Assembly: GCA_045863235.1 (NCBI GenBank) | Contig: BTUM01000005.1 | Coordinates: forward strand, 122,912 to 186,911 | Source of the DNA: Candidatus Xenobia bacterium | Lineage (GTDB): Bacteria > Vulcanimicrobiota > Xenobia > Xenobiales > QWHO01 | DNA: 64,000 nucleotides | Direction of reading: 5' to 3' | Shown here: positions 1,851 to 55,221 of the stretch, in pieces | How the letters are laid out: every line of letters begins with the position of its first letter | How positions within the stretch are numbered: the stretch's first letter is position 1 | The notes under the pieces: generated by a model | The model's database searches: none | What the model saw: only the letters and a program-made list of their open reading frames with translations | Told to the model about the DNA's origin: nothing | Translations under genes and position numbers: made by a program

Positions 1851-3995
1851 TCAGTCGAACCCTTCCAGGGCCCGGCGGTCGGCGTTGGCGGCCCTCAGAC
1901 GGAAGGAGAGCTCCTTGCTCAGGTTCCAGAGCAACCGCATGGCCAGGCGGGGATGCTCCTCCATCAGCTTCTCCAGCGCCGCGCGGTCGAGCCGATAGAG
2001 GTGGGCGTCGGTCTCGGCCAGCACGTCGGCCGAGCGCGGACGGGCCTCGAGCAGGGCCATCTCTCCGAAACTGGCGCCCGGTCCGTAGCTGAACAGGCGT
2101 CGCTCGCCCTGACGGATGGTGGCGTGCCCTCGCATCAGCACGTAGACCGAGTCCCCCGGCTCGCCCTGGCGCACGATCATCTCGCCGGCCGGGACGTCCA
2201 CGTGGGCGATGCTCCGCTCCAGGATGGCCACCTCTTCGTCGCTCAGTCCGGTGCTGAGCTCCATCTCGTTGAGGGGCAGGTTGGGGTGCTCGGAGTCGAT
2301 GTTGGCTTCCGCGAGCAGCAGGTTCTCAGCCCACTCCAGGGCGTGGTCGACGTCCGGGAAGAGGTAGTCCGGGGTGAACAGCTGCAAGACGTCCATGTCC
2401 CTGAGGAAGCCGGCCATGGGCTCGCGCAGCGAAGCCAGGGCCAGCTTGCAGCCGCAGTCTTGCAGGGTCTCCTGGATGAGCTGCAGCACCCGCGCCCCCG
2501 AGCTGTCGATCTCGCTGATCTGGCGCAGATCCAGGATCACCAGGCGCGAGCTCTGCCGGATCTCCTGCACGGTGGTGGCCAGGTGGTCGGCCGAGCCGAA
2601 GAAGAGAGGCCCGGTCAGCTCGAGCACCAGGATCTGGGTGCCGAGCTTCTCCAGGGCCAGGTCCTCCTCGGGCAGGCGCGAGCGGCGCGAGCGCACCTGG
2701 TCGCCGCGATAGTGGCGACGGATGACCGAGCGTCCCATCTTGCGGATGAACAGCGCACCGGCCAGCAGCATTCCCACCCCGACCGCCAGGATGAGGTCCA
2801 CCATCACGGTGATGGCGGTCACCAGCAGCACGACCGCCAGGTCCAGGACGATGGCGCGCTTTTGCTCGGCCGTGCCGGCCACTTTCCAGACCAGCACGCG
2901 GCTGCGCTGGTCGATCATCCCAATGGCCGTGACCAGCAGGATGCCCGCCAGCACGACCTGTGGAATGCCGCCCGCCACGGGCCCCAGCGCCACGACGATG
3001 AGCAGCAGCACCAGGCCGTGAATCACTCCCGACAGGCGGCCCCGGCCCCCGGCGTTGAGGTTGACCAGGGTGCGCACGGTGGCGCCGGCTCCGGCCAGCC
3101 CCCCGAAGCAGCCGGATACCACGTTGCCGATGCCCTGCCCGATCAGCTCGCGCCGGCTGTCGTGTCGGGTGCGGGTCACCGTGTCGGCCACCACCGAGGT
3201 GAGCAGGGAGTCGATGGCTCCCAACAGGCCCAGGGTGAGGGCATTCTCAAGAATCAGGGGCAACAGCTCGAGCACCGCGGCCGACCCGGCCATCTGAATG
3301 AAGACGGGCACATAGCGCGGCTGGGGCACGGCCGAGGGGATCTGCCCGATGACCGGGCCCAGGGGAGTCTCGCTGGACAGGGCGCGAAAGAGGTAGTAGG
3401 CCGCGGTGCCCAGCAAGAGTCCGAGCAGCGAGGCCGGGATCTGTCGGATCAGGCGCGGCCCGAGAAAGATGATGACCACGGTCAGGATGCCGACGAGCAG
3501 GGTAGCCGGCTGCCAGTCATTCAGGGGGGTTTGAGGCGTGAGCCCGAGCAGGGGGCGCAATTGGCCCAGGAAGATGATCACCGCGATGCCATTCATGAAG
3601 CCGGCGATCACGGGGTAGGGGATGTACTTGATCAGCCGTCCGAAGCCCAGCAACCCCAGCACAATCTGCAGAGCCCCACCCAGCAACACGCACAGGAAGG
3701 CCAGCCCGAGCACGAGCTCGGGCTGGCCGGGGAGCGACTCCAGCATGTGCGCGATGACGCCCGTGAGGACCACCGTCATCGGTCCGGTGGGCCCCGTGAC
3801 CTGGCCCGGCGTACCCCCGAACAGAGCTGCGAAGATGCCGGTAAAGATCGCTCCGTATAGCCCTGCCAGCGCCCCCGTGGAGACGTACTCCGGCCCCAGC
3901 GGCGCCAGAGTGGCCACGCCGAAGGCCAGGGCCAGCGGCAGGGCGATGATGGCAGCGGTCAGGCCACCAAACAGCTCGCCTCTTGAGAATCTCAT
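1851..3995 (-). CDS. SulP-family anion transporter fused to STAS and cyclic-nucleotide-binding (cNMP) domains
   Basis: 714 aa. N-terminal Sulfate_transp signature (TGPTGPMTVV..., multiple TM segments), a central STAS domain, and a C-terminal CAP-family cNMP-binding domain (GEMIVRQGEPGDSVYVLMRGHATI...FGEMALL). Confidence 0.9.
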   Translation of the reverse strand: MRFSRGELFGGLTAAIIALPLALAFGVATLAPLGPEYVSTGALAGLYGAIFTGIFAALFGGTPGQVTGPTGPMTVVLTGVIAHMLESLPGQPELVLGLAFLCVLLGGALQIVLGLLGFGRLIKYIPYPVIAGFMNGIAVIIFLGQLRPLLGLTPQTPLNDWQPATLLVGILTVVIIFLGPRLIRQIPASLLGLLLGTAAYYLFRALSSETPLGPVIGQIPSAVPQPRYVPVFIQMAGSAAVLELLPLILENALTLGLLGAIDSLLTSVVADTVTRTRHDSRRELIGQGIGNVVSGCFGGLAGAGATVRTLVNLNAGGRGRLSGVIHGLVLLLIVVALGPVAGGIPQVVLAGILLVTAIGMIDQRSRVLVWKVAGTAEQKRAIVLDLAVVLLVTAITVMVDLILAVGVGMLLAGALFIRKMGRSVIRRHYRGDQVRSRRSRLPEEDLALEKLGTQILVLELTGPLFFGSADHLATTVQEIRQSSRLVILDLRQISEIDSSGARVLQLIQETLQDCGCKLALASLREPMAGFLRDMDVLQLFTPDYLFPDVDHALEWAENLLLAEANIDSEHPNLPLNEMELSTGLSDEEVAILERSIAHVDVPAGEMIVRQGEPGDSVYVLMRGHATIRQGERRLFSYGPGASFGEMALLEARPRSADVLAETDAHLYRLDRAALEKLMEEHPRLAMRLLWNLSKELSFRLRAANADRRALEGFD

Positions 3996-4035
3996 CCCTA
4001 TGGCCTTCGCGCCGGAGGGGCGATTCCTGTCTTGC

Positions 4036-5718
4036 TCAGCCCGAAGCCACTCGGGCGCGGGAGTCGGCCGCGGGCAAGAACGATGCCTGCTCGGCGCGAT
4101 AGATGACCCGTCCTTCCTTGACGGTCCCCAGCACCTGGATCTCCTTGATGCTCATCGGCTCGACCTCGAGCGGGTTGGCGCTCAGGATGGTCAGGTCGGC
4201 CAGCTTACCCACCTCGAGCGAGCCCTTGGAGTCCTCCTCGCCGTGCTGGTGGGCGCCCTCGATGGTGATCGCGCGCAGGGCCTGCAAGGGGGTCACCCGC
4301 TCCTGCGGGCCGATCTCCAGCCCCGAGCGGGCGATGCGGTTGACCGCCGTCCACATGGTCATGAGCTGGTCGATGGGCAGCACGCTGAAGTCGGTGTGGT
4401 TGGTACAGTGCAGCCCCAGGCTGAGGGCCGTCCTCATCGGGCTGCAGGGGTGGGTGCGCTCGGGGCCGAGATTCTTCAGGTGGGTGTCGGCGAAGAAGAA
4501 CGTGTGCTCGGTGTAAAAGCTCACGTTGATCTGATACTTCGCGCACTTTTCTAACTGGTCCGGCCGCGCGAACTGGGCGTGGATGATGGTGGTGCCGAGC
4601 TTGTCGCCCTTGCGGTCCCCGGCTGCCTTCTCGTGGGCTGCCAGCAGCATGTCCAGGCCAGCGTCGCCATTGCAGTGAATGCTGAGGGGGAGCCCGAGAC
4701 GGTAGGCCTGGTCGAACATGGCCTGGAAGGTCTCGAGCGGGAACATGGGCTCGCCCCGCCAGGGGCTTTCCCCGTTGGGCCCGGGCAAGAGATAGGGCTG
4801 CGTGAAGAAAGCCGTGCGCGACATCGGCACCCCATCGGCGAAAGTCTTGACTCCGCGCAGCTTGAGCCGGTTCTGGTAACGGCCGAAGGTCTCGACGGGA
4901 TGCTCCTTGAGCACCTCCTCGAGCTCGGTGACCAGGATATTGGAGACCACATCCAGGTAGAGGCGGCCCTGGGCGGCGCCTTTGACCAGCAGGGCCAGAT
5001 CAGGGGCGCTGGTGGCTCCCTCCACGGCGGTGGTGATGCCGGCGCTGGCATAGATGGCCTGAGCCGCCTGCATCCGCTCGAGCAGCTCCTCGGGGCCGGG
5101 CTTGGGAATGCGAGGGAAGATGGGCAGGAAGGCGGTTTCCTGGATGAGCCCGGCGGGCTCGTTGCTGCCCGGCTTGCGGGCGATGATGCCGCCGGGGGGC
5201 GTGGGCGTGTCGGCGTTGATGCCGAAGAAGGCCAGGGCGGCCGAGTTGAAGACCCCACCGTGGTTGGAGACGTGGATGATCAGCACGGGGTTGTCGGGGG
5301 AATGCGGATCAAGGTCATCTTTCGTCAGCTCGCGACCGTCCTCGAGCATGTTGCCGTCGTAGCCGTAGCCGATGATCCACTCGCCGGGAGCGGGCTTGAG
5401 CCGCTTCTTGTGCTCCTCGAGCACGGCCAGGATGTCCTTGATGCTCCTGACCGGTCCCACCGGAGGGGCGGAGTAGTTCGACCAGGTCACGATCTGCAAG
5501 GCGTTCATGAAGTGGCTGTGGCCGTCCACGAAGCCGGGCACCATAGTGTGGCCTTTCAGGTCCACCATGATCGTTTCGGGTCCCTGGAGCTTGAGGACCT
5601 CCTGGCTCGAGCCGATGGCAAGAATCTTGCCGTCCTTGACGGCCAGGGCCTCGGCCTCGGGCTGGCTCTCGGCCACCGTGATGATGGTTCCGTTGGTGTA
5701 GATCTGGTCAGCGCTCAT
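4036..5718 (-). CDS. Amidohydrolase-family (Amidohydro_3) metal-dependent hydrolase
   Basis: 560 aa. N-terminal VDGHSHF metal-binding motif. TIM-barrel amidohydrolase length and conserved His/Asp positions (HCNGDAG, HTDF). Confidence 0.85.
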   Translation of the reverse strand: MSADQIYTNGTIITVAESQPEAEALAVKDGKILAIGSSQEVLKLQGPETIMVDLKGHTMVPGFVDGHSHFMNALQIVTWSNYSAPPVGPVRSIKDILAVLEEHKKRLKPAPGEWIIGYGYDGNMLEDGRELTKDDLDPHSPDNPVLIIHVSNHGGVFNSAALAFFGINADTPTPPGGIIARKPGSNEPAGLIQETAFLPIFPRIPKPGPEELLERMQAAQAIYASAGITTAVEGATSAPDLALLVKGAAQGRLYLDVVSNILVTELEEVLKEHPVETFGRYQNRLKLRGVKTFADGVPMSRTAFFTQPYLLPGPNGESPWRGEPMFPLETFQAMFDQAYRLGLPLSIHCNGDAGLDMLLAAHEKAAGDRKGDKLGTTIIHAQFARPDQLEKCAKYQINVSFYTEHTFFFADTHLKNLGPERTHPCSPMRTALSLGLHCTNHTDFSVLPIDQLMTMWTAVNRIARSGLEIGPQERVTPLQALRAITIEGAHQHGEEDSKGSLEVGKLADLTILSANPLEVEPMSIKEIQVLGTVKEGRVIYRAEQASFLPAADSRARVASG

Positions 5719-5791
5719 AGGCCAGGAAGGTCCTTTCAGGAGGGGGTGGAGGCTCCTTCTGTCCCGGGTAGCTGCGACCTTCCCCTGGCAA

Positions 5792-7627
5792 ATGATTGCG
5801 CTGCAGCGGAGGAGCCGGCAACCTGCGAGGGAACGTTCGGGTCATATCCGGAAAGGAGATCCTCCCCTCCCTGTGAGACGACGACTCATCGTGTTCTTCC
5901 TGGCCGCATGCCTGGTAGGCTGTGGCGGCGACACTGTGCCCCTCTCCCCGGCCCCCCTGCCTCCCGTCGATTTCGACCCGATCTCCGATCGAGCTCTGGC
6001 CAACGTGGCCTCAGCCAACGGCCTCACGGTGGCGGTCGGCTCCAACGGGCTGTTGCTCACCTCCAGCGACGGCCGAACGTTTACCCCGCGCAACTCCTCG
6101 GTGGGGGTGAACCTGCGAGGCGCGGCCTTCGGCGATGGGGTCTGGATCGCCGTGGGCGATGCCAGCACGATCGTTCGCTCGGCGGATGGCGGCGTAACCT
6201 GGACCCGGGTCAGCGTCCCGGTGTCCGGCTCGGCTTTTCGCGCCGCCACGTTCGGGCAGGGGCTCTTTCTGGTGGGAGGTTCGGGGGGTGTGATCCTGAC
6301 CTCGCCCGACGGCGTCACCTGGACCCAGGCCGTGAGCGGTACGGGCAACATCCTCTGGGGAGCCACCTTCGCGCGTGGTCTGTTTGTGGTCAGCGGTCAG
6401 TTTGGGACCCTGTTGACCAGTCCGGACGGTCGGGCCTGGACCGCTCGGCCCTCGGGGGTGAACAGCTTCCTGTGGCAGGTGATCGAAGGGCCGCCAGGGT
6501 TCGTGGCCGTGGGCGATCAGGGGGCCATCACCTTCTCACCGGATGGGATCAACTGGACGGCTCAGGCCTCACCAACGGGCGAGGTGCTGCGAGGCGTGAC
6601 CTTCGGCCGGGGGGGATTCGTGGCCGCCGGCAGCCAGGGGACCTTGCTCGGGTCCGATGACGGTCGAGCCTTTCGCCTGCTGGACTCCCCGGTGGCCGAC
6701 GTCCTCCGGGGCGTGACCTTTGCCGATGGCACCACCTATGTAGCCGTCGGAGACGAGGGTACCATCTTGCTGTCTTATGATGGCCGGGACTTCTTCATCG
6801 ACCAGACGGCCGACCCCGAGGAACTCTGGGCCACCACCTTCGCCAACGGCATCTTCCTGGCCGGCGGGGGAGAGGGGAGGCTGCTCGTCTCGAGCGACGG
6901 CCAGAGCTGGCGCCGGATCGAGTCGGGCACGGCCGAGAACCTCTATGCGGCTGCCTTCGGAAACGGGCGTTTCGTAATGGTCGGCTCGCGGGGAGCCATT
7001 CTGACCTCGACCGATGCCCTCACCTGGACGGCCGTGCCCTCTCCGACGGACCAGAATCTCTACGGCCTGGCCTTTCTGAACGGCCTGTTCCTGGCCGGCG
7101 GCCTGGAAGGTACCCTTCTGACCAGCCCCGATGGCCTGACCTGGACTTCGGTGGCGGTTCCCTCGGTCCACGCCCTGCACGGCTTTGCCTTCGGGAACGG
7201 GGTATTCGTGGAGGGCGGAGCGGGCAGCCTGTTGACCTCGCCCGATGCGGTGACCTGGACCGTCAATGCCGTGGGGATCGGGCACTTTCAGACCGCGGCC
7301 GCCTTCGGCAACGGGGTCTTCGCGGTGCCGGGCCACGTGGGCCGGGTGCTGGTCAGCGCCGATGGAGTCAACTGGAGCCTGGTGCTGGCCCCCACCCAGG
7401 CCAACCTGAACGCGGCCCTCTTTGCCGGGGGCCAGTTCCTTTTGGGCGCCCAGGGCGCGGTGCTGACCTCGAGCGATGCCAGTAGCTGGGCTCTCCACGC
7501 TGTGCCGACCGACCAGAACGTGCGCGGGCTGGCTTTCGGCAACGGTCGTTACGTGGCCGTGGGGGGAGGGGAGGCTCTGCTCTTCTCGGTGGACGGGGTC
7601 CGCTGGGAGGCCGGGATCATCGAGTGA
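5792..7627 (+). CDS. BNR/Asp-box repeat beta-propeller lipoprotein (hypothetical)
   Basis: About 14 tandem ~40-aa repeats with an S-x-DG-x-TW core (SSDGRTFT, ADGGVTWT, SPDGVTWT, SPDGRAWT, ...). Lipoprotein signal FFLAACLVGCGG. An alternative GTG start at 5873 sits directly before the signal peptide. Confidence 0.8.
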   Translation: MIALQRRSRQPARERSGHIRKGDPPLPVRRRLIVFFLAACLVGCGGDTVPLSPAPLPPVDFDPISDRALANVASANGLTVAVGSNGLLLTSSDGRTFTPRNSSVGVNLRGAAFGDGVWIAVGDASTIVRSADGGVTWTRVSVPVSGSAFRAATFGQGLFLVGGSGGVILTSPDGVTWTQAVSGTGNILWGATFARGLFVVSGQFGTLLTSPDGRAWTARPSGVNSFLWQVIEGPPGFVAVGDQGAITFSPDGINWTAQASPTGEVLRGVTFGRGGFVAAGSQGTLLGSDDGRAFRLLDSPVADVLRGVTFADGTTYVAVGDEGTILLSYDGRDFFIDQTADPEELWATTFANGIFLAGGGEGRLLVSSDGQSWRRIESGTAENLYAAAFGNGRFVMVGSRGAILTSTDALTWTAVPSPTDQNLYGLAFLNGLFLAGGLEGTLLTSPDGLTWTSVAVPSVHALHGFAFGNGVFVEGGAGSLLTSPDAVTWTVNAVGIGHFQTAAAFGNGVFAVPGHVGRVLVSADGVNWSLVLAPTQANLNAALFAGGQFLLGAQGAVLTSSDASSWALHAVPTDQNVRGLAFGNGRYVAVGGGEALLFSVDGVRWEAGIIE

Positions 7628-49062: not shown

Positions 49063-50103
49063 TCAGGCTGCCGCAGCCAGCCGCCAGCCGATGGGATCCT
49101 CCGGGTCCACGCCCTCAACGAAGGGGCGGTGACGCTCGAGGTGGGTGAGCTGGTAGACCAGACCCAGCCAGTTGTTGAAAACGGCCTTGCCGGTATCGCC
49201 CCAGGTGTTGTCCAGCAAGTCTTCCAGCTCGGCTTCGGGAAAGGTCTCCAGCTCACCCCGTCGGTAGCGCTCCGCCAGGGCCTCGGCCCCCGGGGGGAAG
49301 TAACCTTCCGGAAAGGGAGGCGGATGCGCCAGCTCGCCCGCCAGGTAGCGCAGCACCTCGCGCTTGTATTCCTTGAGCAGGCTGTTGAGGTCATACTCGG
49401 GATGGCCCTGCGAGTAGACGACGCGCAGACCGTCCGGGCTGACGGCCAGGTGCACCTCGTCGTGGTCGTCCAGGATTAGCGGCGTCACCCCGCACTGGCG
49501 CAGCCGCTCGGCGCTGACCGTGTTCCAGCGAGAGTGGGGCACGTCGAAGCGCGTGTTGATGTCGTGCAGCAAGGGGTGCTGCAGGCGTGCCTTGCGGTGG
49601 CGATAGACGCCCCAGCGCTTGGCAGGCAGCGGTTGGCGACGGATGCCGTAGAGGTGCTCGAGCACCGCGTGGCTGGCCAGGCACGAGCACCACACCGAGG
49701 TCACCCGGCGCGTGGCCCAGGCCAGCACCTCCATCAACGGTTCCCAGAAAGGCTCCTGGCGGAGGTCGGGCCGGGTGACGTTGGCCCCGGTCACGATCAG
49801 GGCGTCCAGGCCTTCGCTCTTGAGTTGCTCGAAGCTTCGATAGTGGCGGGCGATGTACTGCTCCGCCTCGGGGCTCCGGGGGAGGCCCGGCAGGCTGAAG
49901 GGGTGCACGTAGAACTGGGCGATCTGGTTGCAGTTTCCCACCAGCTTCAGGAACTGCCGCTCGGTGACCTGGAGGGCAGCGTCCGGCATCATGTTCAGGA
50001 AGCCGATGTGGAGCTCTCGGATGTCCTGGCGGGTGGCCTGCTCCAGCGACAGAGCCCCGGGAAGATTGAGGCTGGGCAGCTCGAGGTGGCGGACCAGCGG
50101 CAT
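49063..50103 (-). CDS. metA: Homoserine O-succinyl/acetyl-transferase MetA
   Basis: 346 aa. N-terminal IRELHIGFLNMMPD and the HTS-family architecture. Immediately downstream of metB with a 1-nt gap. Confidence 0.9.
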   Translation of the reverse strand: MPLVRHLELPSLNLPGALSLEQATRQDIRELHIGFLNMMPDAALQVTERQFLKLVGNCNQIAQFYVHPFSLPGLPRSPEAEQYIARHYRSFEQLKSEGLDALIVTGANVTRPDLRQEPFWEPLMEVLAWATRRVTSVWCSCLASHAVLEHLYGIRRQPLPAKRWGVYRHRKARLQHPLLHDINTRFDVPHSRWNTVSAERLRQCGVTPLILDDHDEVHLAVSPDGLRVVYSQGHPEYDLNSLLKEYKREVLRYLAGELAHPPPFPEGYFPPGAEALAERYRRGELETFPEAELEDLLDNTWGDTGKAVFNNWLGLVYQLTHLERHRPFVEGVDPEDPIGWRLAAAA

Positions 50104-50104
50104 C

Positions 50105-51283
50105 TCAGGCCACCTTTAGCCCGGCGGGCAGGGTGGCCGTGAGGGCAGCCTCGAGGTCAGCCTCGAGGTCCTCGGGGCACTCCAGGCCCACCGACAATCG
50201 CAAGAGCTGGCTGGAGATGCCCGCCGCCAGACGGGCGGCCTCGTCCATGGAGGCGTGGGTCATGCTGGCGGGATGGGCGATCAGGCTTTCCACCCCTCCC
50301 AGCGACTCGGCCAGGCTGAAGAAGCGCAGATTTTCGAGCAGGATGCGAAGCTCCGGCTCGCCGCCGGCCAACTCGAAGCTGATCATGGCCCCGAACCCGC
50401 TCTGCTGCTGGCAGGCCAGGGCGTGGCCCGGGTGGTCGGCCAGGCCCGGGTAGTAGACTTTCTCCACGGCAGGGTGCTGCTGCAAGAACCGGGCCAGCTC
50501 TCTGGCGCTCGTCTCTTGCTGGCGGATCCGCACCGGCAGGGTGCGCAGCCCGCGCAGGGTCTGGTAGCTGTCGAAGGGGGAGCCTGTGTTGCCGATGCAG
50601 TTGGCCCACCAGGCGAAGTCCTGGTGCAACTCAGCCGTGCGCGAGACCAGGGCGCCTCCCACCACGTCGCTGTGGCCATTGAGGTATTTGGTGGTGGAGT
50701 GGACCACCACGTCGGCGCCGAGCTCGAGCGGGCGCTGCAGCACCGGTGAGAGGAATGTGTTGTCGGCCGCAAAGAGCGTGCCGTGGGCCCGACAGAGCCG
50801 GGCCACCGCTCGCAGGTCGGTGAGGCGCAGCAGCGGGTTGCTGGGGGTCTCGACCAGGATCAGGCGGGGAGCCTCCTCGGCGAAGGCCGCCTCCAGGGCG
50901 GCCGGGTCGGTCTGGTTGACCAGCTTGAGGCGGAAGTAGCCTCGCTCGGCTTTGTTGCGCAGCAGCCTGTGAGTGCCTCCATAGCAGTCGTGGGGGGCGA
51001 GCAAGAGGTCGCCGGGCCGCAGCGCGTAGGTGAGAAGATCCAGGGCGGCCATGCCGGAGGAGGTGAGCACCGCTGCGTAGCCGCCCTCGAGCTTGCTGAT
51101 GGCTTCGGCGGTGACGTCGCGGGTGGGGTTGCCGCTGCGGGTGTAATCATACTGGCGTTTGCCCTGATAGCCGTCGAAGGTGTAGTTGCTGGAAAGATAC
51201 AGCGGGGGCATGACGGCTCCGTGGGCGCGATCCTGACCGACTCCGGTGCGGGCGGCGATGGTGCTACAGTTGGGTTCCGGCAT
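50105..51283 (-). CDS. metB: Cystathionine gamma-synthase / O-succinylhomoserine sulfhydrylase (PLP-dependent Cys/Met metabolism family)
   Basis: YTRSGNPTRDVTAEAISKLEGG...STTKYLNGHSDVVGGALV (PLP Lys in TTKYLNGH). RBS GGAGAG-N7-ATG. Confidence 0.9.
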   Translation of the reverse strand: MPEPNCSTIAARTGVGQDRAHGAVMPPLYLSSNYTFDGYQGKRQYDYTRSGNPTRDVTAEAISKLEGGYAAVLTSSGMAALDLLTYALRPGDLLLAPHDCYGGTHRLLRNKAERGYFRLKLVNQTDPAALEAAFAEEAPRLILVETPSNPLLRLTDLRAVARLCRAHGTLFAADNTFLSPVLQRPLELGADVVVHSTTKYLNGHSDVVGGALVSRTAELHQDFAWWANCIGNTGSPFDSYQTLRGLRTLPVRIRQQETSARELARFLQQHPAVEKVYYPGLADHPGHALACQQQSGFGAMISFELAGGEPELRILLENLRFFSLAESLGGVESLIAHPASMTHASMDEAARLAAGISSQLLRLSVGLECPEDLEADLEAALTATLPAGLKVA

Positions 51284-51398
51284 AACGAGCTCTCCTTTTG
51301 TCTGGTCTGGAGAACCATCGCGACCAGCCGGGCGGTTGCGCTTCCAAGAGAGGTCGCGTTGCGACCTGAATTGCGCTGAGCGCCTTCTTCGCGCTCAT

Positions 51399-51515
51399 CG
51401 CCTCATCTCTCGGCGAAACTCGCCGCAGGACTTGGCACCTTAATCCGCTTTGGGCGGAACAGGTTGCCCCAGCTTCACAGGGCCTGAACCCTCGACTGGT
51501 CTTGATGATTGGTTC
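51399..51515 (-). promoter_or_regulatory. SAM-I (S-box) riboswitch aptamer in the metB-metA leader
   Basis: Minus-strand RNA AAUCAUCAAGACCAGUCGAGGGUUCAGGCCCUGUGAAGCUGGGGCAACC...AAGGUGCCAAGUCCUGCGGCGAGUUUCGCCGAGAGAUGAGG matches the S-box consensus blocks (AUCAAGAG, GAGGGA, GGCCC, UGAAGC, GGCAACC, GGUGCCAA.UCCUGC, GAGAGAUGAG, P1 CAUC/GAUG). The downstream platform has hairpins and a CUCUC anti-SD candidate against GGAGAG. Confidence 0.85.
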
Positions 51516-51520
51516 TTCCC

Positions 51521-51549
51521 AGAGTAGGGGAGAAGGGGGCTTTTGTCAA
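51521..51549 (-). promoter_or_regulatory. Candidate promoter TTGACA-N17-TACTCT driving the riboswitch/met operon
   Basis: On the minus strand, TTGACA (51549..51544), a 17-nt spacer, then TACTCT (51526..51521), about 6 nt before the aptamer 5' end. Confidence 0.45.
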
Positions 51550-51870
51550 TACCAGCGCCCGCGGTCGCATCACGAACGGGAGGGATACCTTGACCGACAT
51601 GAACTTTACGAGCGATACTATCGTACCTTCGTTTGTTGTATGCGCTGAAGGAGTGGCGTAAACATTGGGTTCCCGCGGGAATGAAACGGGGTGACCAACA
51701 CCGTTGAGACCCAAATCGGCCGGGTCCGGCGATTTGGTCCCCGTGTGGTCCCCAACCATCGGCCTGCCAGCCGAAGCTGCCCGAGAAGTCTACAACAGAG
51801 TGAAGCCGACCTGCTCTCTTTCTGCCAGTAGCTCGGAGGAGCACTGGCTTCATCTCTTGAAAATTGCCCT

Positions 51871-52152
51871 GTGGCCAGCCCTGAAGAGGTTCGACATCCC
51901 TACGTCACGTCTCGTCCCGATGTGTGCGGCGGTAGCCCGGTCATTGTGGATACAAGATTCCCGGTGCGATCGGTGGTCAACTACGTCCTCAAACAGGGTC
52001 TTTCTCCGGAGGAGTTGGTGTTGGAGTTTCCTCACCTGACCCTCGCTAAAGTCTACGATGCGCTTTCCTACTACTACGACTACCAAGCTGAGGTCGACGC
52101 AGAGATCGAGGAGTGCACCGAGGCGCATTTGAAGCCGAAAAAGATCGCTTAG
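51871..52152 (+). CDS. DUF433-family protein (antitoxin-like partner)
   Basis: RPDVCGGSPVIVDTRFPVRSVVNYVLKQGLSPEELVLEFPHLTLAKVYDALSYY matches the DUF433 consensus. Local GC is markedly lower than flanking DNA. Confidence 0.75.
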   Translation: MASPEEVRHPYVTSRPDVCGGSPVIVDTRFPVRSVVNYVLKQGLSPEELVLEFPHLTLAKVYDALSYYYDYQAEVDAEIEECTEAHLKPKKIA

Positions 52153-52506
52153 ATGGCCTCGCCTCGCATCCTCTGTGACGAGGATGTCCGAATCTTGCTC
52201 GCAGAGGTCCTTCGGCAGAGAGGTTACGACGCGGTCCACGTGTCCGAGCAGAATCGGTCAGGCAAGACTGACATCGAGCAACTGGAATTCGCAGTGGAAG
52301 AACGCCGTGCATTCCTGACTCACAATGTTGGAGACTTTGTCGTGTTGCATCGAAGGTTTGGGGAAGAGGGTCGAAGCCATTTTGGAATCATCGTCTCCGA
52401 CCAACTACCCTTTGGTGAGTTGCTTCGCCGAACTCTGCGTTTCGTGAGTCGATTCACGGCCGACGAACTGAACAATCGGCTCATCTGGCTGCATGACTTC
52501 AAGTAA
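52153..52506 (+). CDS. DUF5615 / PIN-like (Mut7-C-like) putative toxin, partner of DUF433
   Basis: Starts 1 nt after the DUF433 stop. Conserved acidic residues (ILCDEDV...D...THNVGDF). DUF433-DUF5615 gene pairs are recognised putative TA modules. Confidence 0.65.
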   Translation: MASPRILCDEDVRILLAEVLRQRGYDAVHVSEQNRSGKTDIEQLEFAVEERRAFLTHNVGDFVVLHRRFGEEGRSHFGIIVSDQLPFGELLRRTLRFVSRFTADELNNRLIWLHDFK

Positions 52507-52926
52507 GGTGAGAATGAGGGTGACAGGAGTCGGCGATCCCGAGCAACGAGCGCGAGCAGGCCCTAGGCCAGTTCAAGGATGAAGCTCGGTGCCAAGTTCA
52601 TGTTGGCTGCGTCTTTGCCCTGGCAATGCTGGTCGTGTCCTGCGCCAGCATGGTGATGTACGCTGTAAACACGCAGATGCCAACCGATGAGTCACCTTCG
52701 CCGGCGTGCGCCAAGCAAGTGGAGGAGCCGAGCAAGCATCCTGAAGAGGCAAAGCCGTGACGTGAAGCCTCGCGAGCTCGTTTGCCGCTTCGAGGAGGGT
52801 GATCACTGGGAGGTCTGGCGGGAGTTCCAGAAAGGCGCGGGTGGGTGGCCTGTATTTCGCGCTCGCACGGCGGGGGCGACGAGGACGCCAATCTGGCGGG
52901 GGTCTGCGAGGTGCATCACCAGGGGC

Positions 52927-53185
52927 ACTTGCACGGGGGCACGATGAAGGCCCGACGCGAGCGAAGCGGGAGCATCCTGTGGCAGGTCGGGATTCGGAAC
53001 GGTCAGCCTTACCGGGTATTCCGCGACGACGTGAGGCTCGGGCGCCGTCGGTCTGGTTGCACGGGGACACGATGAAGGCCCGGCGCGAGCAAGGCGGGAC
53101 CATCCTGTGGCAGGTCGGGATTCGGAATGGTCAGGCTTATCGGGTGTTCCGCGACGACAGGTGGAGTTCGAGACGACTGACTTCC
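52927..53185 (+). repeat. 128-bp tandem direct duplication (two copies, about 90% identical over the first ~100 nt), each carrying an RBS-like GGGG(A/G) plus a small ORF
   Basis: Copy 1 ORF 52944..53075 (MKARRERSGSILWQVGIRNGQPYRVFRDDVRLGRRRSGCTGTR). Copy 2 ORF 53072..53230 (MKARREQGGTILWQVGIRNGQAYRVFRDDRWSS...). ATGA overlap between them. Half of the 8 nt differences across the conserved 87 nt are synonymous. Confidence 0.5.
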
Positions 53186-53419
53186 TCGGGGCTCCTGAGG
53201 AGCCGTGAGGGCTTCGAGAAGCAGGGCTAGCTCGAAGGTGCTCGGTCCAGGTCCCCAGGCCGCGGCGAGCCCGGGTCGAACATGCCCTCAGCCGAGTCCT
53301 CAAACAACCATCAGGCCGCGGCCCGCAGGCTTTCATTCAGGTTGGAAGGGTTCTGGTCGTTGAGGCAGTAGGCGTGCTCCCACGATGCCGCCCGCCTCGT
53401 CCCTCGGGCCTGACTTCCG

Positions 53420-54001
53420 TCATGATCCCGCGGCCCTGGGGAGCACCACGCTTCCCACCAGCACGCTGTCCCCACGCTCGTCCACGGCTCCTCCCACGGG
53501 CGCCTCGATCAGGGTCAGGGGCTGGCGAAGCGACTCGTAGGCCTCTCGGGCCGCGGTCAGGCTCTCTTGCTGGGCCTGACGCTCGGCTTGCAGCTTCTGG
53601 CTTGACAGGCGCTCCAGGTGCAGGGAGACGGTGGCATCCACGCTCTTCAGACTTACGTCCGCGAACTTCATCGAGGAGTGGACGCCGACCATCAGGGCGC
53701 CCAGACCGAGAGCCGCCACCACGCCTCCGGCCAGTCCGACCGGAATCGCCTGGAAGGCCATGCCACCCATCAGGACGGCTGCCCCGCCGATCAGCGTGTA
53801 GCAACCCACTCTGGGCAGCTCGTTGGCTCGCCACTTCAAGCGCTCGCGCTGAGCCTCCGTTTCCTCGGCCCTGCGCTCGAGCCGGTCACACTTCTCCTGG
53901 CTGGCCTGGTAGAGTTGCTCCAGCCCCCGGAGTTTTTCTTCCTGCTGCTCGACCTGCTGGCGCGCGGCCACGAGCTGAGGCGGATCGCTGCGGAGGATCA
54001 T
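53420..54001 (-). CDS. Hypothetical coiled-coil membrane protein (central double-TM hairpin flanked by coiled coils)
   Basis: 193 aa. N-terminal and C-terminal coiled coils (QQEEKLRGLEQLYQASQEKCDRLERRAEETEAQRERL; LSSQKLQAERQAQQESL). Central hydrophobic GCYTLIGGAAVLMGGMAFQAIPVGLAGGVVAALGLGALMVGV. Start overlaps the upstream gene stop (ATGA). Confidence 0.6.
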   Translation of the reverse strand: MILRSDPPQLVAARQQVEQQEEKLRGLEQLYQASQEKCDRLERRAEETEAQRERLKWRANELPRVGCYTLIGGAAVLMGGMAFQAIPVGLAGGVVAALGLGALMVGVHSSMKFADVSLKSVDATVSLHLERLSSQKLQAERQAQQESLTAAREAYESLRQPLTLIEAPVGGAVDERGDSVLVGSVVLPRAAGS

Positions 54002-55221
54002 TCGCGCCCCTTCTTGTTGCGAACCACCACACCCCCGATGACCAGGTTGCCCTGGTCGTTTTGTCCCACCGCCTGGGGCGGGGTGGGGGGCTGGCCACCG
54101 CGCTCGAGCACGAAGACCTGGCTGAGGCGCTGGCGGGCCCCGGCTGAATCCTCCTGGGCAAAGCGCGTGATGGCCTGGCGCACGTAGTCGATCTTACGGT
54201 CGTTGGCGGTGGCTCCCGGTGACCCGGCCGGGCCGGACGAGATCTCGCCGAACAGCTCGGCTCGCTCCTCCAGGGTTTCCCGCTCCACCATCACCGCCAT
54301 CAGGGGCAGGGCCTCGGCGGCTTGATCGACTCCGTGGCGGCGGGCCAGGTCGACCAGAGCGTCGGCCACCCGCAGGCGGTCCTGGGGCTCGAAATTGCAG
54401 GCGATCGCGCCGTAAAGATGGGCCGATTGCCGCAGGTCGGTCACCTGGCTGAGCTGAGCCAGGCATCGCATCCGCTCCTCGGGGTCGGGGCCGCTGTAGG
54501 CCGCCTCCCAGAAGTCGGCCCGCTGCTGAGCGTTCAGGCCCGCGGGCAGCAGCGGGTCGAGGGTGCGAGCCAGGGCATAGCGCTCGACGAGCTGGTCGGG
54601 CTGCTCCACCACAGCCGGGTTGAAGGGGATGCGCGGGCCGTCCGCCGAGCTTACCCAGATCACCTTGTCCTGCTGCTCGACCACCCGGCAGTAGGCTCGA
54701 AAAGCGTCGTGATCGGTGTCGGTGAAGACGGTGCGGCTGTCTGAGCCCGAGCTATGGAAAGCAAAGTCCTGCTCAGAGAGCTGTTTCAGGCCATCGGCCA
54801 GGGCCGGGCGGGCCAGTCCGAAGTCCTGTCCGCTGGCGTGGAAGTAGCACAGCGCGCTTACCGTCTCGGCCGAACGGATGTCGATCGGCTTTCGCTGTCC
54901 CGGCGGACGCACCGCCAGGCGCCCGTGGCGCTCGCCGGTGGCCACGAAGCGATAGAGGGCCAGCCGGTCCTTGGGGGCGCCGTCCATGGCGCCGCGCATC
55001 TCGAGCACGGTGAACTTGTGGTCGGCCAGGTCCTTGACGGCCAGGGCCAGCCGGTCCTCGGTCTGGCCCAGGTGCACGGCCTCGAGCTGCGCCAGCTCGG
55101 CCTCCTCCACCTGGATGGGCACCGTGTCGCGCCCGCTGCGCACGCTGAAGGTCTCTCCCTCGCGGTTGAGGCGCACGCCGCTCTGGCGCAGGCGATCGAG
55201 TCGGGCAGAATCCACCAGCAT
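53998..55221 (-). CDS. Hypothetical protein (407 aa), first gene of a two-gene operon with the coiled-coil membrane protein
   Basis: High-GC, protein-like ORF. 4-bp start/stop overlap with the downstream gene. No domain recognised. Confidence 0.6.
   Translation of the reverse strand: MLVDSARLDRLRQSGVRLNREGETFSVRSGRDTVPIQVEEAELAQLEAVHLGQTEDRLALAVKDLADHKFTVLEMRGAMDGAPKDRLALYRFVATGERHGRLAVRPPGQRKPIDIRSAETVSALCYFHASGQDFGLARPALADGLKQLSEQDFAFHSSGSDSRTVFTDTDHDAFRAYCRVVEQQDKVIWVSSADGPRIPFNPAVVEQPDQLVERYALARTLDPLLPAGLNAQQRADFWEAAYSGPDPEERMRCLAQLSQVTDLRQSAHLYGAIACNFEPQDRLRVADALVDLARRHGVDQAAEALPLMAVMVERETLEERAELFGEISSGPAGSPGATANDRKIDYVRQAITRFAQEDSAGARQRLSQVFVLERGGQPPTPPQAVGQNDQGNLVIGGVVVRNKKGRE

Follow-up and report, generated by a model that had tools for sequence, protein, structure and literature searches.

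Two overlapping short reading frames as the probable tandemly duplicated remnant of a DUF222/HNH-endonuclease-family gene

The 64-kb stretch of DNA analysed here (the window) contains a short direct repeat, each copy of which opens a small reading frame, and this raises the question of whether the pair represents small-protein genes, a peptide precursor array or the scar of a duplication. The repeat consists of two 102-nt copies with 9 mismatches (91% identity) and a start-to-start spacing of 128 nt (Table 1). A nucleotide profile of both copies (nhmmer) recovers exactly two copies in the window, each with an E-value of ~5e-33; the array is absent from the output of Tandem Repeats Finder and is detected by nhmmer and by a direct-repeat search. 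An ATG located 15 nt inside each copy gives rise to ORF1 (MKARRERSGSILWQVGIRNGQPYRVFRDD...) and ORF2, which overlap by ATGA. Their shared coding core of 87 nt differs at eight sites, four synonymous and four nonsynonymous, and the likeness between the copies breaks off sharply at 102 nt on both sides. These results bear out the architecture given in the original prediction, namely a 128-bp tandem duplication, two small ORFs overlapping by ATGA, a synonymous share of 50% within 87 nt and diverging C-terminal tails.

We read the locus, with a probability of roughly 0.87, as the 5'-truncated and tandemly duplicated pseudogene remnant of a DUF222/HNH-endonuclease-family gene (~600-650 aa) located in a strain-variable island. 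The interpretation as a small-protein or peptide system fails and the locus is a case of ordinary gene decay. A duplication scar had been among the candidates originally put forward and came close to the truth; the tandem duplication is real.

Table 1. Coordinates of the gene remnant, its repeat copies and short ORFs, and of neighbouring features in the window
Feature	Position	Strand	Remarks
Probable pseudogene remnant including its duplicate	52849-53172		Main reading
Remnant of DUF222/HNH-endonuclease-family gene, 5'-truncated 3' end	52849-53059	+	Last ~65-70 codons, RSHGGGDEDANLAGVCEVHHQGHLHGGTMKARRERSGSILWQVGIRNGQPYRVFRDDVRLGRRRSG; contains repeat unit 1
Repeat copy 1, 102 nt	52929-53030	+	Parent residues ~587-620 (LHGGTMKARRE...YRVFRDD); ORF1 start is an internal Met codon
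ORF1	52944-53075	+	43 aa
Natural 3' tail of parent (VRLGRRRSG), then duplication junction	53031-53059	+	Alignment A2 with L004, L005, L009 and L006
26 nt completing unit 1	53031-53056		Natural 3' end of parent gene; the counterpart downstream of copy 2 is decayed
Repeat copy 2, 102 nt	53057-53158	+	Extra, probably non-functional copy; ORF2 begins inside; from repeat search and profile
ORF1/ORF2 overlap	53072-53075		ATGA
ORF2	53072-53230	+	52 aa
ORF2 tail	53159-53230	+	First ~14 nt are decayed parent 3' end; the rest is unrelated read-through to the first stop
ORF0	52762-52947	+	Chance ORF that runs from unrelated 5' DNA into the beginning of the remnant; sequence read against alignment A2
Island	51550-54012		Flanks kept in related MAG contigs
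Block nearly identical to L001	51594-53252		1.66 kb; indel clusters at 51562-51593 and 53253-53263
DUF433 gene	51871-52152	+	E = 1e-17
DUF5615/PIN-like gene	52153-52506	+	E = 8e-16
Frameshifted lipoprotein-like ORF	52579-52760	+	Signal peptide split between two frames
193-aa gene	53420-54001		No above-threshold family match
SAM riboswitch (RF00162)	51400-51511	-	70.3 bits, E = 1e-15
Cys/Met-metabolism PLP enzyme gene (PF01053)	50105-51283	-	E = 6e-133
Homoserine O-succinyltransferase gene (PF04204)	49063-50103	-	Follows the PLP enzyme gene

In related loci, the repeat unit occurs as a single copy at the C-terminus of one long reading frame. A scan of metagenome contigs with a degenerate pattern taken from the peptide alignment yielded nine loci. 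The 102-nt profile finds one copy each in seven of them (L004, L005, L007, L008, L009, L010 and L011), three copies in L006 and a partial copy in L012. In the single-copy loci, one frame runs straight through the supposed ribosome-binding site and ATG (…CDVHHQGHLHGGT-M-KARRE…). In L005 the frame stays open for no fewer than 388 codons; in L004, L010 and the three-copy locus L006 the minimum is 281-301, with all four frames cut by the start of their contigs. A protein search with L005 returned full-length relatives of 594-679 aa, all ending in the peptide segment, which include P0002 (652 aa, 85% identical to L005), P0004-P0006 (54-56%) and P0007-P0012 (27-31%). In the C-terminal alignment of relatives at 27-56% identity, the supposed initiator Met aligns with Ile, Leu or Val. 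The 40 nt 5' of the 'start codon' are conserved across loci and their differences are mostly synonymous in the frame C-D/E-V-H-H-Q-G-H-L-H-G-G-T-M-K-A-R-R-E. The originally proposed leader of ~15 nt resembling a ribosome-binding site thus does lie within the repeat together with the start codon, but it is parent coding sequence (H-L-H-G-G-T-M).

Comparison of the intact genes shows selection on the long frame. Over the last 60 codons, L004 and L007 differ by 10 synonymous changes and 1 nonsynonymous change (1/0/10 at codon positions 1, 2 and 3), and L004 and L009 by 14 and 2, respectively (1/1/14). This predominance of third-position differences shows that the long frame is under purifying selection, including the 15-nt 'leader'. 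Seen against this comparison, the peptide likeness and synonymous surplus of the window copies, earlier taken as a sign of selection on the peptide, are probably a legacy of past purifying selection on the parent protein. The loci with the long frame lie in genomic contexts other than the orthologous locus, and the probable ancestral state of the window locus is reconstructed from copies that are paralogous or xenologous. No intact HNH gene was found at the window's exact chromosomal position in the related MAGs, where two contigs (L002 and L003) carry different DNA. Relatives with a single longer gene had been named at the outset as the observation that would turn the short ORFs into pseudogene fragments, and such relatives exist in substance, except that their loci are not orthologous. 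The arrangement itself is found in a second strain: L001, a 4.1-kb contig that encodes P0001, is 98.2% identical to window positions 50863-54984 and contains both copies. As the arrangement is identical in this independent assembly, it is genuine and does not stem from misassembly.

The parent is assigned to the DUF222/HNH-endonuclease family by its more distant homologues, by motif residues that are conserved and by weak matches to profiles, its closest relatives themselves scoring below threshold. P0007 and P0008, which match L005 with E-values of 1e-37 and 1e-35, pass the Pfam HNH model (PF01844) at 25.6 versus 21.4 bits. L005, the closest long relative, reaches 10.4 bits against the same cutoff of 21.4 and the window fragment gives no match. 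The Pfam DUF222 model (PF02720) is passed by P0006 (27.1 versus 24.4 bits), P0005 stays below (16.6 bits), and P0002, P0004 and L005 show no match to this profile, whose region is absent from the window. The HNH region accounts for a match between L005 and an NCBIfam IscB model (E = 9.5e-6), and PDB profile matches are all to HNH domains (IscB, McrA, group II intron maturase and Cas8f-HNH) at weak E-values of 0.017-0.9. The invariant columns of the family read C..C, HH, N, C..HH and H. The 'peptide' corresponds to a conserved extension, G-x-[ILVM]-x5-[DG]-G-x-[IL]-x-W-E-x-G, placed after the last His of the CxxC...HH...N...CxxHH...H motif. An AlphaFold2 model of the C-terminal 242 aa, computed for P0003, is poor (pLDDT 56) and hints that MKARR and ILWQVG may form a beta-hairpin after this His.

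In its overall layout, the parent resembles REP13E12-type DUF222 and HNH proteins. It possesses a long helical, DUF222-like N-terminal region, which in the relative P0006 passes the DUF222 threshold, and a C-terminal HNH domain with the motif of the class followed by the short extension. In M. tuberculosis, REP13E12, HNH endonuclease and DUF222 have been grouped as one category of repetitive elements (PMC10589994). In contrast to these proteins, only the last ~10% of the gene, lacking the residues for catalysis, is present in the window, the nearest intact relatives have diverged too far to reach the Pfam thresholds, and the host is a high-GC environmental bacterium rather than an actinobacterium. 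The parent gene is present in at least five unrelated contexts, with several contigs ending inside it, and the loci have only the HNH gene in common with each other and with the window. The unrelated contexts and contig breaks fit a dispersed, possibly multi-copy family.

The window fragment begins downstream of the catalytic residues. Nucleotide homology to L004-L011 starts abruptly at 52849 in every locus and ends at the natural stop at ~53059. The in-frame protein match begins at 52860, where the fragment opens with R-S-H-G-G-G. In tblastn searches with P0002, residues 564-626 align with window positions 52860-53048 (82.5% identity, E = 3e-27), residues 587-620 are found a second time in repeat copy 2, and no other part of the parent gene is present in the 64-kb window. 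The first zinc-binding Cys pair and the catalytic His-His (C153, C158 and H167/H168 in alignment A3) are invariant in the parent family and missing from the window. Because the homology begins after these residues, the fragment cannot be an active HNH nuclease. It keeps DEDAN-LAGV-C-EV-HH-QGHL-H, corresponding to the invariant N182, C187, H190/H191 and H196. The truncation point lies at about codon 564 in the window and about codon 589 in L012, and L007 and L008 carry an internal deletion; these differences argue for random deletions and not for site-specific recombination.

The upstream ORF0 also overlaps ORF1 by ATGA. Its residues VFR (52852-52860) correspond to EFR of the parent (HLEFRSHGGG), and ORF0 seems to run into the remnant because a 2-nt insertion at 52849-52862, relative to the intact genes, shifts the frame. 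We considered ORF0 as a third diverged copy, based on its 'VKPRE' start and internal 'VFR', and rejected it: the protein comparison gives 12 bits (E = 0.46), at the nucleotide level the score coincides with the mean of shuffled sequences, and the nhmmer results for the 64-kb window contain no third repeat copy. Two antisense ORFs across the repeat (176 and 177 aa) were likewise dismissed, with codon scores of -0.65 and -0.37 and no family matches.

The duplication junction can be read by comparison with the single-copy genes. Their frames end in ...CTGGTTGA in L004 and L005 and in ...AGTTTGA in L009. At the junction, the natural stop in GGTTGA is replaced in the window by GGTTG joined directly to CACGGGG, with the window and L006 reading GGTT(G/T) and then CACGGGG. 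Microhomology at the join amounts to TG, since CACGGGG is also preceded by (C/T)TG where unit 1 starts. The unit length of 128 nt equals 3x42+2 and shifts each copy by one frame. The ATGA overlaps arise because a unit's ORF stops at the TGA within the ACGATGA of the following unit. L006 possesses the junction of the window and the altered tail (DVRLGRRRSG.TG.R*) on a still-open frame of at least 286 codons, cut at the contig start. It contains two further units, one with a 16-nt deletion and the other with a frameshift and an internal deletion, ending in the natural 3' tail. Derived states (GAGCAAGG) are common to window copy 2 and L006 units 2 and 3; the duplication is therefore older than the split of the two alleles. 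Downstream, the BLAST match of the ORF2 tail to L009 ends at 53172, beyond which there are no further matches.

Substitutions in the two copies are distributed as expected if copy 1 was kept under selection within the gene and copy 2 was drifting, although numbers are small. The nine differences between the copies were polarised against the single-copy genes, one site being polymorphic there and not polarisable. Changes specific to copy 2 comprise three nonsynonymous (G to D in the HLHGG motif, S to G and S to T) and one synonymous, those specific to copy 1 one nonsynonymous and three synonymous. The only difference between window and L001 copies, 53118 G>A, is nonsynonymous (G16E) and affects a Gly conserved in most of the family.

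From these observations, we infer the following order of events. In an ancestor common with the L006 allele, a 128-nt head-to-tail duplication would have occurred at the very 3' end of the gene, probably via replication slippage or unequal exchange at the TG microhomology. The copy would have comprised ~34 terminal codons together with the 3' tail, and the natural stop would have been overwritten. A later deletion or rearrangement would then have removed everything upstream of codon ~564, including the first Cys pair and the catalytic His-His, likely leaving a locus without a present function. In the copied segment, Gly codons (GGG GGC) lie before an internal Met codon and together with it would mimic a ribosome-binding site and start codon. 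Each unit reads as a short ORF because the unit length is out of frame and the internal Met follows these Gly codons. Tandem-duplication scars and pseudogene fragments share these characteristics, namely a head-to-tail copy with 2-3 nt of junction microhomology, a unit that is not a multiple of 3 and places successive copies in different frames, and a signature of past selection in one copy only. Nothing essential sets the window apart from ordinary duplication scars; the internal Met and Gly codons make the artefact unusually convincing.

The HNH relatives show additional rearrangements around the 3' end of the gene. Their stop codon constitutes the first unit of tandem motifs of ~31-36 nt (GCCCGACGCGCTCGACCTGTTGAG-like) in L004 (~830-950), L007 (7221-7582) and L009 (~460-610), the L007 array consisting of 2.7 copies of a 69-nt and 2.2 copies of a 79-nt repeat. 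Tandem repetition seems to be a general tendency of this family's 3' flank. This motif is not detectable downstream of window copy 2. Furthermore, L007 (6702-7184) and L008 (2348-2830) contain a 160-aa ORF in which the first ~7 residues (MLYVLEP) of the full-length protein are joined directly to its last ~153 with a complete HNH motif, which could represent a mini-HNH protein or another stage of decay. L012 (2246-2353) carries an independent 5'-truncated remnant (GSILWQVGIRDGLAYRVFRDE..., parent residues ~589-623) in an unrelated context and with a breakpoint unlike that of the window.

Three other explanations, which together we consider improbable, were weighed against the pseudogene reading. 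Both ORFs are intact in two strains and each ATG carries a G-rich stretch (GGGGG/GGGGA) 5-6 nt upstream, an SD-like distance. These features would be compatible with exaptation, in which one or both ORFs yield a small protein that acts, for instance, as a regulator or inhibitor of intact HNH paralogues elsewhere in the genome; we judge this to be very unlikely. Using a codon-usage log-odds score trained on 21 confident genes of the window, the ORF1 and ORF2 cores score mildly positive (+0.16 and +0.31 per codon, versus +0.45 for real genes), a result in line with translation but also expected for a recently dead gene, and both tails score negative (-1.0 and -0.17). In the ORF1 frame, the score turns positive near 52830, ~110 nt 5' of the ATG. 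The surplus of nonsynonymous changes in copy 2, one of them in the conserved HLHGG, speaks against exaptation, as do the nonsynonymous nature of the sole inter-strain difference and the deleted or frameshifted extra units of L006. No sigma-70-like promoter was found. ORF2 has been called as a gene by the JGI pipeline in L001, and this 52-aa 'hypothetical protein' (P0001, 98% identical) was the one match when 5.8 billion protein clusters were searched by indexed words. When 1.84 billion representative proteins were searched exhaustively with HMMER, the sole addition apart from low-complexity noise was the C-terminal end (residues 200-240) of P0003, an incomplete protein that NCBI names 'HNH endonuclease [bacterium CPR1]'. 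Across both collections, no free-standing homologue of the peptide exists besides P0001 of the sister strain, and viral contigs scanned with the peptide contained no relatives. ORF0, ORF1, ORF2 and the long antisense ORFs remain without a match in Pfam or NCBIfam when E-values up to 10 are admitted, so that DUF2188 and DUF1508 are excluded, and with them the DUF2188/YegP-like small proteins originally suggested. No maturation enzymes are encoded beside the short ORFs, the neighbours being the DUF433/DUF5615 pair, the frameshifted lipoprotein-like fragment and 193-aa and 407-aa proteins without above-threshold family matches. A peptide precursor array, also suggested earlier, is further contradicted by the segment being part of a long gene in relatives. 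The likeness to DUF2188/YegP (DUF1508) proteins and RiPP arrays is superficial: short ORFs stand in tandem, their N-terminal part conserved and their tails variable. Unlike in those systems, relatives have this conserved part within a long gene encoding an enzyme.

Bacteriophage phiRv1 uses REP13E12 repeats as attB in M. tuberculosis. By analogy, the copies might be relics of a recombination site, left by a mobile element with the 3' end of the HNH gene family as its target, which would have been duplicated on integration before the element was excised or decayed. The position of the remnant in a strain-variable island beside a toxin-antitoxin pair, the near identity of the surrounding block in two strains whose flanks differ by ~1.7%, and the second, independent 3' remnant in L012 would suit such a scenario. 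We nevertheless give it little credence: the copies are head-to-tail with nothing between them, the island contains no integrase or recombinase, L006 has three units on a still-open frame, the differing breakpoints of the window, L012 and L007 point to random deletions rather than a fixed core site, and the proneness of the gene's 3' flank to tandem arrays favours slippage. The sharp repeat edges and the position between convergent genes could also point to a functional unit that is not translated (structured sRNA, cis-regulatory RNA, attC- or MITE-like repeat), a reading to which we attach next to no weight. Both strands of both copies fold no better than shuffles (z = +0.25 to +1.3), Rfam yields nothing over the repeat at E = 1 (best E = 2, an unrelated lncRNA model), the 102-nt unit has no terminal inverted repeats, and the codon-periodic substitutions across loci effectively refute it. 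A speculative and very improbable proposal is that the last ~100 nt of the HNH gene and the ~33-nt array beginning at its stop codon in relatives form a recombination or recognition hotspot, for example the target of the nuclease itself or an attachment site, or that a short ORF modulates intact paralogues. A hotspot would account for the fact that independent genomes (window, L001, L006 and L012) keep, duplicate or triplicate exactly the 3' end of the HNH gene. If true, either version could shed light on the spread of the widespread, functionally obscure DUF222-HNH genes. The duplicated pseudogene remnant remains our preferred reading.

The remnant is located in an island that varies between strains. 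Related MAG contigs keep the flanks of the island at 90-94% identity and carry entirely different DNA inside. In L002, positions 1964-6986 (~5 kb) replace it and encode a 718-aa protein without family match, a protein with a prepilin-type N-methylation motif and an M20 peptidase. In L003 (from 11231), synteny is lost at window position 53991, indicating that the 193-aa gene is also island-specific. The L002 and L003 contigs, 92-96% identical to the window over several kb, bear the titles 'uncultured Burkholderiales' and 'Candidatus Eremiobacteraeota', respectively; of the MAG labels, one or more must be wrong. The island is a patchwork that includes other broken genes. A single base separates the window from L001 over the 1.66-kb block that spans the toxin-antitoxin pair, the HNH remnant and, between them, the broken lipoprotein-like ORF. 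For the 193-aa and 407-aa genes flanking this block the divergence is 1.4-1.9%, a rate at which ~28 differences would be expected in the block. Indel clusters are found at both of its edges. Identity relative to the flanks and these edge indels suggest that the block was recently exchanged between strains. The DUF433 and DUF5615/PIN-like genes, separated only by the stop codon of the former, form what by sequence is a typical type II toxin-antitoxin-like pair, with a GC content of ~55% compared to ~68% in the rest of the window. The lipoprotein-like signal peptide is split by a frameshift, with MKLGAKF... in one frame and ...FALAMLVVSCAS (lipobox-like) in another. As the frameshift is identical in L001, this ORF is probably a second island pseudogene and not a sequencing error. 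Next to the island, a SAM riboswitch lies upstream of the Cys/Met-metabolism PLP enzyme gene and the homoserine O-succinyltransferase gene, which together look like a SAM-regulated methionine biosynthesis operon.

Overall, the locus represents a cautionary case for small-ORF annotation, in which an out-of-frame duplication produces the picture of overlapping genes complete with a signature of selection. One false small-protein candidate is removed, for which one public pipeline had already annotated one of the ORFs as a protein, and the surrounding 2.5 kb are marked as a strain-variable, decaying island.
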